Assembly (NCBI GenBank): GCA_963823665.1
Contig: CAWGMQ010000011.1
Span: 448,001-512,000 of the forward strand
Length of the DNA: 64,000 nucleotides
Direction: 5' to 3'
Source of the DNA: an uncultured Planctomycetota bacterium
GTDB taxonomy: Bacteria > Planctomycetota > Planctomycetia > Isosphaerales > Isosphaeraceae
The position numbers were made by a program, and so were the translations under genes. Below, piece by piece: positions 7,593 through 12,681 of the stretch. Position 1 is the first letter of the stretch. The number at the start of each line of letters is the position of its first letter. The notes beneath the pieces are model-generated. The model ran no database searches and had not been told where the DNA came from. It was given only the letters and a program-made list of their open reading frames with translations.

Positions 7593-8195
7593 TCATCCGC
7601 TCGGCGTATGTTGACGCGTGAGCGTCAAGAGCGGGTCGTAATTTCCCAGGTCGGCTTCTTTGATGGCCGCCAGGTACTCGTCGCGGATCGTGCTTGCAGT
7701 CCCAATCAGGTTTTCTGGCCACGACGTATGGGTATGACCGCGCGATCGTAACAGGATATTTGCAAGCATCCGCGACCAACGTCCATTTCCGTTGAAGAAC
7801 GGGTGAACTCCAACAGCGAGATGATGGAGCCGGACCGCTTGCTCCACCAGGTTCATGCCCGATTGGTCCCAGAACGCGAGATCACCCAATAGGTTCTCGA
7901 GTTTCTCATCAATCAGGCTCCAGCGGACGCCAAGGTTCAAGTCGCGAGTCCGAATCTCGCCCGCCCATTTCCACACGTCGCCGAACATTTCTTTGTGCAA
8001 CCGCTTGACCCACCTGAGGTCAAACGGAGCCATCCGCTTCGTCGGCCGCCTGCGGCCGAAATACTTGGACACGGCCTTGCGGATGTTCCTGGCTTCGACC
8101 AGATTCAATTCCTGACGGGTCTTGACCCACGTGATCTTGAGGTGCGAAACATCGATCGGCGTCTCGCCCGGCAGTTCTTGCCAGCTAGATGCCAC
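7593..8195 (-). CDS. Fic-domain protein, mobile mystery protein B type
   Basis: Fic motif HPFFNGNGRWSR; LHKEMFGDVWKWAGEIR; N-terminal PGETPID..ELNLVEARNI; likely GTG start at 8195 (TTG 8213 possible). Confidence 0.9.
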   Translation of the reverse strand: MASSWQELPGETPIDVSHLKITWVKTRQELNLVEARNIRKAVSKYFGRRRPTKRMAPFDLRWVKRLHKEMFGDVWKWAGEIRTRDLNLGVRWSLIDEKLENLLGDLAFWDQSGMNLVEQAVRLHHLAVGVHPFFNGNGRWSRMLANILLRSRGHTHTSWPENLIGTASTIRDEYLAAIKEADLGNYDPLLTLTRQHTPSG

Positions 8196-8200
8196 GGAAT

Positions 8201-8614
8201 TCAGCAGCTCCAAAGCCGGTGACTCGATCCCGCGAGCAATTCGTGGTAAGTGTTTTCCACCATCGCTCGATATTCATCGTCGCTCACCGCCTGACCCTCG
8301 AGTGCGGAAGTGCCCTGGACCATGCCAACAATCCACGCGGCCTTCTTACGCGCTTGCCGCTCCCGAAGGGCTTGTGCGCTCACGGCCGGCTCGAATTTGA
8401 TCGACCCATCGTCCAGAATTCGGATGGTGCCCATACCCAGCACCCGCGCCACGGACGCAATGCTCGTGACGCCGGGTGACTCGACCTTGCCGGTCAACAA
8501 TCGCTGGAGCGCGGGCTGAGAAACGCCGCTCAACTCGGCCAGCGCCGAAAAGGAAATACCCAGCTCGCGACGCCGCAAGTCGAGCGCGTCATACGGTGTG
8601 GTGATTGCATTCAT
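8201..8614 (-). CDS. XRE-HTH protein, mobile mystery protein A type; probable Fic antitoxin and autorepressor
   Basis: RRRELGISFSALAELSGVSQPALQRL HTH; C-terminal VQGTSALEGQ...SHRLW; RBS GGGAGG before ATG 8614; directly upstream of the Fic gene. Confidence 0.85.
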   Translation of the reverse strand: MNAITTPYDALDLRRRELGISFSALAELSGVSQPALQRLLTGKVESPGVTSIASVARVLGMGTIRILDDGSIKFEPAVSAQALRERQARKKAAWIVGMVQGTSALEGQAVSDDEYRAMVENTYHELLAGSSHRLWSC

Positions 8615-8652
8615 ATTCTTGCCTCCCACAGATTTCGCACTCGAACCATTGC

Positions 8653-12258: not shown

Positions 12259-12681
12259 TGACCGGGGAGGGGCTCGAACCCTCGACCAACGGATTAACCT
12301 ACCTCATCGGCTTTCGCCGACCGCGTGGAATCGAGTACCGGGTGCTTTCGGGTGCAGCGGCAATCGAATCTGGCGTTGAAAGTCTGGACTATACCATCGC
12401 CATCGCAGGCGTGCCGCGTCTAGTCTCTGAGGCTGAGACCGATCAAGGACCGGACTCTTGCCTGCTGATTACCCAATCCGCCCACTTTTCAAACCGTCGC
12501 GCTTGCCGTTACCGGCTTCGCTGTGGTGCAGGCGGCTCTCAGGGCGTTCCAGCAAATTGCGGCATTCACTCGTCGCGGTTCGGCTTCTTCCCGCGCGAGG
12601 CTCCTGAGCTTCGATCTCCCTTGGTACTTACCTGACTGCTCCCTGTGAAGTCCGTTGCTCTACCGACTGAGCTACCCGGTC
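12259..12681 (-). tRNA. Intron-containing tRNA, best read as tRNA-Lys(UUU); exon 1 12681-12648, exon 2 12297-12259; CCA not encoded
   Basis: Joined exons give a canonical 73-nt cloverleaf GACCGGGTAGCTCAGTCGGTAGAGCAACGGACTT|TTAATCCGTTGGTCGAGGGTTCGAGCCCCTCCCCGGTCA; G1-C72 and A73 favour Lys over the 1-nt-shifted Asn(GUU) reading. Confidence 0.88.
12298..12647 (-). ncRNA. Group I self-splicing intron (350 nt, no ORF) in the anticodon
   Basis: P AATTTGCTGGAA, Q AATCAGCAGG, R CTCAGAGACTA, S GATGGTATAGTCC in order; terminal hairpin GTCGGC-GAAA-GCCGAT; exon ends in U and intron ends in G. Confidence 0.92.

Follow-up and report, generated by a model that had tools for sequence, protein, structure and literature searches.

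A tRNA-Lys(UUU) gene on the minus strand of the window (the whole stretch of 64,000 nucleotides analysed here, from an uncultured planctomycete of the family Isosphaeraceae), at positions 12681-12259, has its anticodon interrupted by a 350-nt group I intron. That the insert is a group I intron in tRNA-Lys(UUU) is well supported. In the best explanation, which I regard as highly probable, an ORF-less group I intron sits between U34 and U35 of the tRNA-Lys(UUU) conserved in this family and is likely to remove itself, leaving a tRNA that reads AAA codons. The splice points, the fold and the distribution are based on sequence comparison and the circle junctions on RNA contigs of orthologs, and the chemistry is taken over from the established group I scheme as it stands in the main text of Williams 2020 (bioRxiv 10.1101/2020.01.27.920355). 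The parts of the gene are as follows.

12648-12681, minus strand: 5' exon of tRNA-Lys(UUU), G1 to U34, 34 nt, ending in U33-U34; the same exon in intron-free orthologs is called Lys(ttt).
12298-12647, minus strand: group I intron, 350 nt, with an Rfam match and a covarying fold, both ends fixed by the circle junctions of orthologs.
12259-12297, minus strand: 3' exon, U35 to discriminator A73, 39 nt, CCA not encoded.
12599-12604, minus strand: conserved internal guide GGAGCC (3' strand of P1), invariant in 35/35 orthologs.
12612-12619, minus strand: alternative, genus-specific P1 partner, in 2/35 orthologs, both of this genus; it also sets U34 on a G.
12570-12598, minus strand: P2 hairpin, 93% paired, both-side changes in 3/8 pairs.
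12412-12564, minus strand: P3 (12564-12559 with 12417-12412), 100% paired, both-side changes in 3/6 pairs, in agreement with RNAalifold.
12463-12554, minus strand: P4-P5, extended by a P5abc-type domain at about 12541-12475, with an A-rich bulge; P4 invariant, P5a with both-side changes in 6/7 pairs.
12431-12462, minus strand: P6/P6a, 96-98% paired, both-side changes present.
12386-12427, minus strand: P7 pseudoknot (12427-12421 with 12391-12386), 100% paired.
12298-12385, minus strand: 3' domain, with a variable hairpin, a GAAA-capped hairpin (12320-12307, 100% paired) and the terminal omega-G at 12298.

The two exons form a cloverleaf in which all 7 pairs of the acceptor stem and all 5 pairs of the anticodon stem are present, with the anticodon UUU in a 7-nt loop and A73 as discriminator, and intron-free orthologs back this assignment; the U(-1) at the 5' splice site corresponds to U34 (12648). 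Standard callers miss or mislabel the gene: without its intron mode, ARAGORN reports 0 tRNAs in the window, and in intron mode it calls the window gene Asn and, over 30 loci (L033-L062), gives Asn 16 times, Lys 4 times and other isotypes 10 times. The preliminary description of this DNA had foreseen that callers would miss the gene, and had placed it correctly in a planctomycete. No homing endonuclease is found in or beside the window intron, the longest stop-free frame on its sense strand being 54 codons. The upstream neighbour of the tRNA gene codes for a divergent WD40 protein whose N-terminus is kinase-like, and downstream are genes for a WG-repeat protein and a response regulator as well as an HTH/Fic pair; a sigma-70 promoter scan of the minus strand gave no match. 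AAA codons are in use, with 15 in five window ORFs.

The Rfam group I model, which the preliminary description had proposed as a check on its claim of a group I intron, does match: RF00028 aligns to 12364-12657 with 34.7 bits (E 3.1e-6), though this is under the curators' cut-off of 50 bits, a threshold that belongs to the model and does not define the RNA class. Williams 2020 (bioRxiv 10.1101/2020.01.27.920355) worked with a threshold of 20 bits. At E 0.01 the same model finds no match for the ortholog of Singulisphaera acidiphila and for five others among 17 tested Lys-intron loci. Further evidence comes from an alignment of 35 ortholog introns (30 from the family genome scan and five from named records), in which 95.3% of the cells of a hand-built P1-P9 structure are paired, against 30-41% in slid controls, with two-sided changes in 23 of 69 pairs. 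RNAalifold independently recovers P2-P6, the three-helix P5abc, P8 and the P9/GAAA hairpin. The core thus described comprises P3-P9 with the P3/P7 pseudoknot and the G-binding pair: P3 encloses P4-P6 and the 5' strand of P7, and P7, with P8 (12411-12398) inside, has a bulged A, the guanosine site G12425-C12387 and a terminal pair that is A-U in 23, C-G in 11 and U-A in one of the orthologs. The omega-G is kept in 35/35 orthologs, and the circle junctions close on it. The whole precursor folds only modestly better than its shuffles (z -1.93). A first-tried P5b pairing (alignment columns 151-152 with 172-173) was paired in 34% and was discarded, the register of RNAalifold being better. RNAalifold also lets the 3' strand of P7 pair with the 5' exon, which is taken as an artefact of the method, as this tool cannot form a pseudoknot and P7 covaries.

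For P1, the preliminary description had proposed a helix between the 5' exon and 12619-12612 with a U.G pair at the junction. The latter part holds, as U34 lies on a G with this partner as well, and U(-1) is in a U.G pair of P1 in 35/35 orthologs; the proposed partner, however, is confined to one genus, and the guide that is conserved is found 15 nt deeper in the intron. With the guide 12604-12599, U34 pairs with G12603 and A31 is bulged, and since the pairs of P1 never vary, their support is one of conservation, not of covariation. In the isolated window fragment 12619-12612 is slightly favoured over 12604-12599 (-7.6 vs -6.8 kcal/mol, with pairing probabilities of 0.50 vs 0.29), and the P1 loop is long, with 43 nt from the intron start to the conserved guide. 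On its conservation I dropped 12619-12612 as the general P1 guide and kept it as a local alternative.

The splice after U34 claimed by the preliminary description came with a caveat, namely that a shift of both splice points to one base earlier would make the product a tRNA-Asn(GUU), a reading that I now consider exceedingly improbable. The window intron ends in GG, so a U(-1) and a terminal G are available in both registers, and the intron-mode call of ARAGORN is itself Asn. However, while G ends the intron in 35/35 orthologs, the preceding base is G in 15, C in 11, A in 7 and T in 2, so that the Asn register has no valid omega-G in 20 of the 35. Three family genomes (G077, G078 and G089) carry the same exons joined without an intron, with a UUU loop; ARAGORN calls these genes Lys(ttt), and they differ from the window exons, in the Lys register, by 5 mismatches in 73. 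A separate intron-free Asn(GUU) pattern is matched in 59/60 family genomes. The window gene has G1-C72 and A73, whereas the genome's own Asn gene has U1-A72 and G73, and the best helix with U33.G reaches -4.7 kcal/mol, against -6.8 and -7.6 kcal/mol for the two U34 guides. The circle junctions are compatible with the Lys register only, and together with the penultimate base and the intron-free orthologs they confirm tRNA-Lys(UUU) and rule out the Asn caveat.

These junctions were found in RNA libraries. A search with the S. acidiphila ortholog returned 24 RNA runs, none with half of its words, and six were examined. In run X1 (study P1) a 106-nt contig has the terminal G followed immediately by the first base of an intron like that of L045, and in run X4 (study P3) a 340-nt contig with a depth of 3.7 joins the terminal G to the start of an intron like that of L125. 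As no letter is gained or lost at either junction, they point to full-length circles and fix both splice sites in the Lys register. This evidence consists of contigs, not reads, from orthologs rather than from the window organism, in two of the six runs, and the libraries hold DNA-like long contigs; the depths in X1 are 748.5 at the circle junction vs 215.3 for the flanking 17-kb contig, from which no expression ranking is drawn. Joined exons were absent among the RNA contigs of the runs examined, and runs X2, X3 and X6 gave no joint among the matches listed and X7 no match at all, negatives that carry no weight. The circles represent activity at both intron ends, not exon ligation; according to Nielsen and Johansen, full-length circles can reportedly form by a route that leaves the exons unjoined.

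In the proposed mechanism, the 5' strand of the anticodon arm would pair with the guide 12604-12599 to form P1, and a free guanosine bound in P7 would attack after U34. The terminal G would then occupy the same site in P7, and U34 would attack the bond before U35, by which the exons would be joined; CCA addition and modification of U34 would follow, and the excised intron would close into a full-length circle. Protein help in folding is compatible with this explanation by self-splicing.

The window genome does have a second, intron-free tRNA-Lys(UUU) within a tRNA array (C5:951307-951378), and this genome therefore gives no sign that splicing is needed; the check for another such gene, which the preliminary description had put forward, thus went against it. 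This copy, together with the long P1 loop and its competing guide, could mean that the intron is real but no longer usefully spliced here, the array tRNA-Lys(UUU) decoding instead, which I find very unlikely, as the invariant core positions are all intact in the window copy, the exons pair perfectly, both P1 options keep U34.G, and the array copy is distributed patchily among family genomes. Alternatively, the insert may be removed by proteins (an endonuclease and a ligase), or may be the footprint of a mobile element with a passing likeness to a group I intron. The Rfam score below the threshold would agree with this, as would the use of the locus by integrative elements in relatives, but the group I core is complete, with a covarying P7 pseudoknot, the circles close at the omega-G and the window holds no duplicate of the 3' exon, all of which make this reading very improbable. 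I retain the self-splicing intron as the preferred explanation.

In genomes G001, G008, G010, G031, G085 and G088 the 3' exon is directly repeated (L191:13753 and 17291, L193:7828, L194:7953, L195:2517, L213, L215); the repeats extend into the 3' end of the intron and resemble the leavings of integrative elements. One type of repeat includes the last 5-10 intron bases only, the other about 30 bases with the GAAA hairpin, after an element-side sequence shared in three genomes. Tyrosine integrases (PF00589, E 2e-18 and 1e-11) lie beside two of the repeats, and integrases appear to recombine inside the intron in these relatives. In the window, no duplicate 3' exon (att site) was found at up to 6 mismatches in 30. 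The HTH gene and the Fic-domain gene that follows it (window 7593-8629, 3.6 kb downstream of the tRNA) lie in a stretch with a GC content of 57-62% vs 67-69% nearby and may be what is left of an island, although the search for an att repeat was negative.

The orthologous tRNA was surveyed in relatives, as the preliminary description had recommended; the name Isosphaeraceae for the family follows from named records that carry the same exons. A match of intron length occurs in 32/36 genomes of the same family vs 0/24 other genomes of the same class, and the intron junction pattern is present in 54 of 60 family genomes with at least 90% completeness. In 29 of these 54 carriers the pattern for an intron-free Lys(UUU) has no match; the other 25, the window genome included, have one, mostly a single array-type gene, and about five of these matches are without a proper stem by eye. 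For the window genome, the tRNA census consisted of a pattern search and of a model search in which 150 of the 322 candidates were scored. No other Lys(UUU) was found in any of five further genomes, i.e. the complete genome of S. acidiphila DSM 18658 and those of four actinobacterial carriers. One genome (G034, contamination 5%) carries the intron-bearing gene twice, on contigs C130 and C218, in full-length copies that differ from each other. From this distribution, a single entry into the ancestor of the family, followed by vertical descent without a homing enzyme and precise loss in a few lineages, seems likely.

In the rest of the phylum a looser pattern was matched in 4/300 genomes, of which one (G366) has a real intron. 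In 10 of the 64 parts of the species collection a scan picked out 121 loci; the whole interrupted gene fitted 38 of them, and after removal of L127, which has no stems, 37 loci were kept, from Planctomycetota, Actinomycetota, Rhodothermales/Bacteroidota, Gemmatimonadota and Pseudomonadota. Among 100 other genomes from the family of one Microbacterium carrier none matched, which indicates that the intron is patchy outside the Isosphaeraceae. On one contig labelled Alphaproteobacteria (L084) the gene is nearly identical to that of a family member (L061), and this contig is possibly misbinned.

The 67 complete Lys introns comprise 52 of type A, with a core like that of the window intron and a long P5 extension, and 15 of type B, with a compact core that I take to be IC3-like. 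In Microbacterium both types occur at the same tRNA-Lys site in different tRNA backbones (L072, L089, L112 and L151 vs L139 and L147). The core of the window intron looks like IB4, not IC3: introns of subgroup IC3 have no P5a-d, whereas P5abc is present and covarying here. By eye, and in a comparison that covered IB4 rows of the GISSD (32 of 89 rows; alignment in the supplement of PMC6125680), type A resembles this subgroup: the P4 strands agree, J3/4 has 4 nt and J6/7 has 3 nt, J7/3 is very short, P6 begins with G-G, and an extension of the P5a type with an A-rich bulge is frequent. The Q-R core pattern of type A was located in rRNA at 8 of 20 metagenome loci tested. Introns of subgroup IA, the phage type, have the extra helices P7.1/P7.2 between P7 and P3, and I rejected this subgroup for the window intron, in which the gap from P7 to P3 is only 3 nt, despite a phage-like P4-P5abc (71-80%).

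Known IB4 introns lie in rRNA and organellar mRNA, unlike the window intron, and the domain after P7 departs from them as well. Core identity is 0.70 between type A and the rRNA introns and 0.50 between types A and B, whereas over the ten bases after P7 the identity is 0.60 between A and B and 0.30 between A and rRNA, a contrast in sequence identity which suggests shared ends with different cores. A core tree separates type B with 100/100 and does not reject a single clade of A and B (p-AU 0.142); this tree is based on 76 columns, with 4 of 42 rows mis-anchored (L072, L074, L079 and L133) and an rRNA set that was picked with the type-A pattern, so that a swap of cores is offered as a hypothesis.

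Viral contigs carry the Lys intron as well, with 2 matches in one search and 6 of 108 loci in further searches; one of these six (L396) is probably a host gene beside a provirus. No record of an annotated phage or plasmid covers 80% of the intron, the P4-P5abc part alone giving matches. The introns matched by this part, at 74-80%, are those of Pseudomonas, Yersinia and Escherichia phages (L202, L203 and L204), and in most of these records the intron is unannotated. Two phage contigs (L205:2764-3108 and L206) have a 181-nt type-B intron in tRNA-Lys(UUU), with, directly upstream of the gene, an ORF of 114 amino acids that has a weak HNH match (at L205 with E 0.012, below the cut-off), and a tRNA-Ile(UAU) nearby. 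Spread between phyla would likely have involved phage-borne copies with a neighbouring endonuclease, the single piece of evidence being the weak HNH match at L205.

A reading that joins these observations, which I put forward tentatively and as rather less than likely, is that introns at tRNA-Lys 34/35 are mosaics, in which tRNA-adapted ends (guide and 3' domain) carry either an IC3-like or an IB4-like core by swap at a fixed site. The form with the IB4-like core would have become fixed throughout the family, where AAA decoding would usually depend on it alone, and would be a second 'essential' and long-lived lineage of tRNA introns next to the Leu intron of cyanobacteria; its full-length RNA circles would accumulate in soil, and the site at which integrases recombine would have moved into its 3' end.

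The preliminary description had compared the intron with the four classic bacterial hosts only, and the novelty that this implied does not survive, as the main text of Williams 2020 (bioRxiv 10.1101/2020.01.27.920355) raises the number of tRNA group I intron classes from 4, all IC3, to 21. In the numbering of that text, where Leu.3Ug denotes an insertion after U34, the window intron has Lys, position 3, U(-1) and omega-G, i.e. Lys.3Ug. The main text names no Lys class, no planctomycete and no subgroup for the 17 new classes, and 'Lys.3Ug' was not found in this text or in the supplement of PMC11915505. The old complete genome of S. acidiphila DSM 18658 (L125) was probably in its data set of 2017; the insertion site is probably already catalogued in the 2020 preprint, and the window intron probably a further member of a catalogued class. 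In a literature search by title and abstract start, covering few subscription papers, no item dealt with a tRNA-Lys intron of planctomycetes, with the subgroup of such an intron or with its circles.

The tRNA-Leu(UAA) intron of cyanobacteria and plastids (Leu.3Ug, IC3) is similar in its position 34/35 in the anticodon loop, the lack of an ORF and its long vertical inheritance in a clade, but it has a different host tRNA and belongs to a subgroup without P5a-d (PMC11835236), whereas the window intron has a covarying P5abc. The Azoarcus pre-tRNA-Ile intron (IC3; PMC13168695) also lies in a tRNA anticodon loop and circularises after excision; unlike the window intron it has 205 nt and no peripheral domains, and its circles lose 5' bases (L-3, L-5), whereas the two junctions of the window orthologs are full length.

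Although the surprise is limited by a site that was probably tabulated in 2020, these observations explain why tRNA-Lys(UUU) is 'missing' from many annotations of Isosphaeraceae, and they warn that callers in intron mode mislabel the gene, mostly as Asn. They describe a family-wide, apparently obligatory ribozyme that is present in the cultured S. acidiphila DSM 18658, and a natural former of full-length circles with a P5abc domain, and they indicate that tRNA introns need not be IC3. What is added is the near-fixation in one family, the IB4-like core, the circles in field RNA and the pattern of two cores.

The same genome holds a second group I intron outside the window, about 73 kb from the first (G000:C11:533405-533785, L031), of 381 nt and with an Rfam score of 72.5 bits. 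It splits a tRNA with the anticodon CAU after U36, the classical Ile2 position, and has a long P5 extension; ARAGORN in intron mode calls this gene Gln. The tRNA array with the intron-free Lys(UUU) (G000:C5:949644-951378, L212) comprises 13 or more genes, among them a second copy each of Lys(UUU), Lys(CUU) and Asn(GUU), and further tRNA clusters lie near C5:874342-875547 and 988040-988303.
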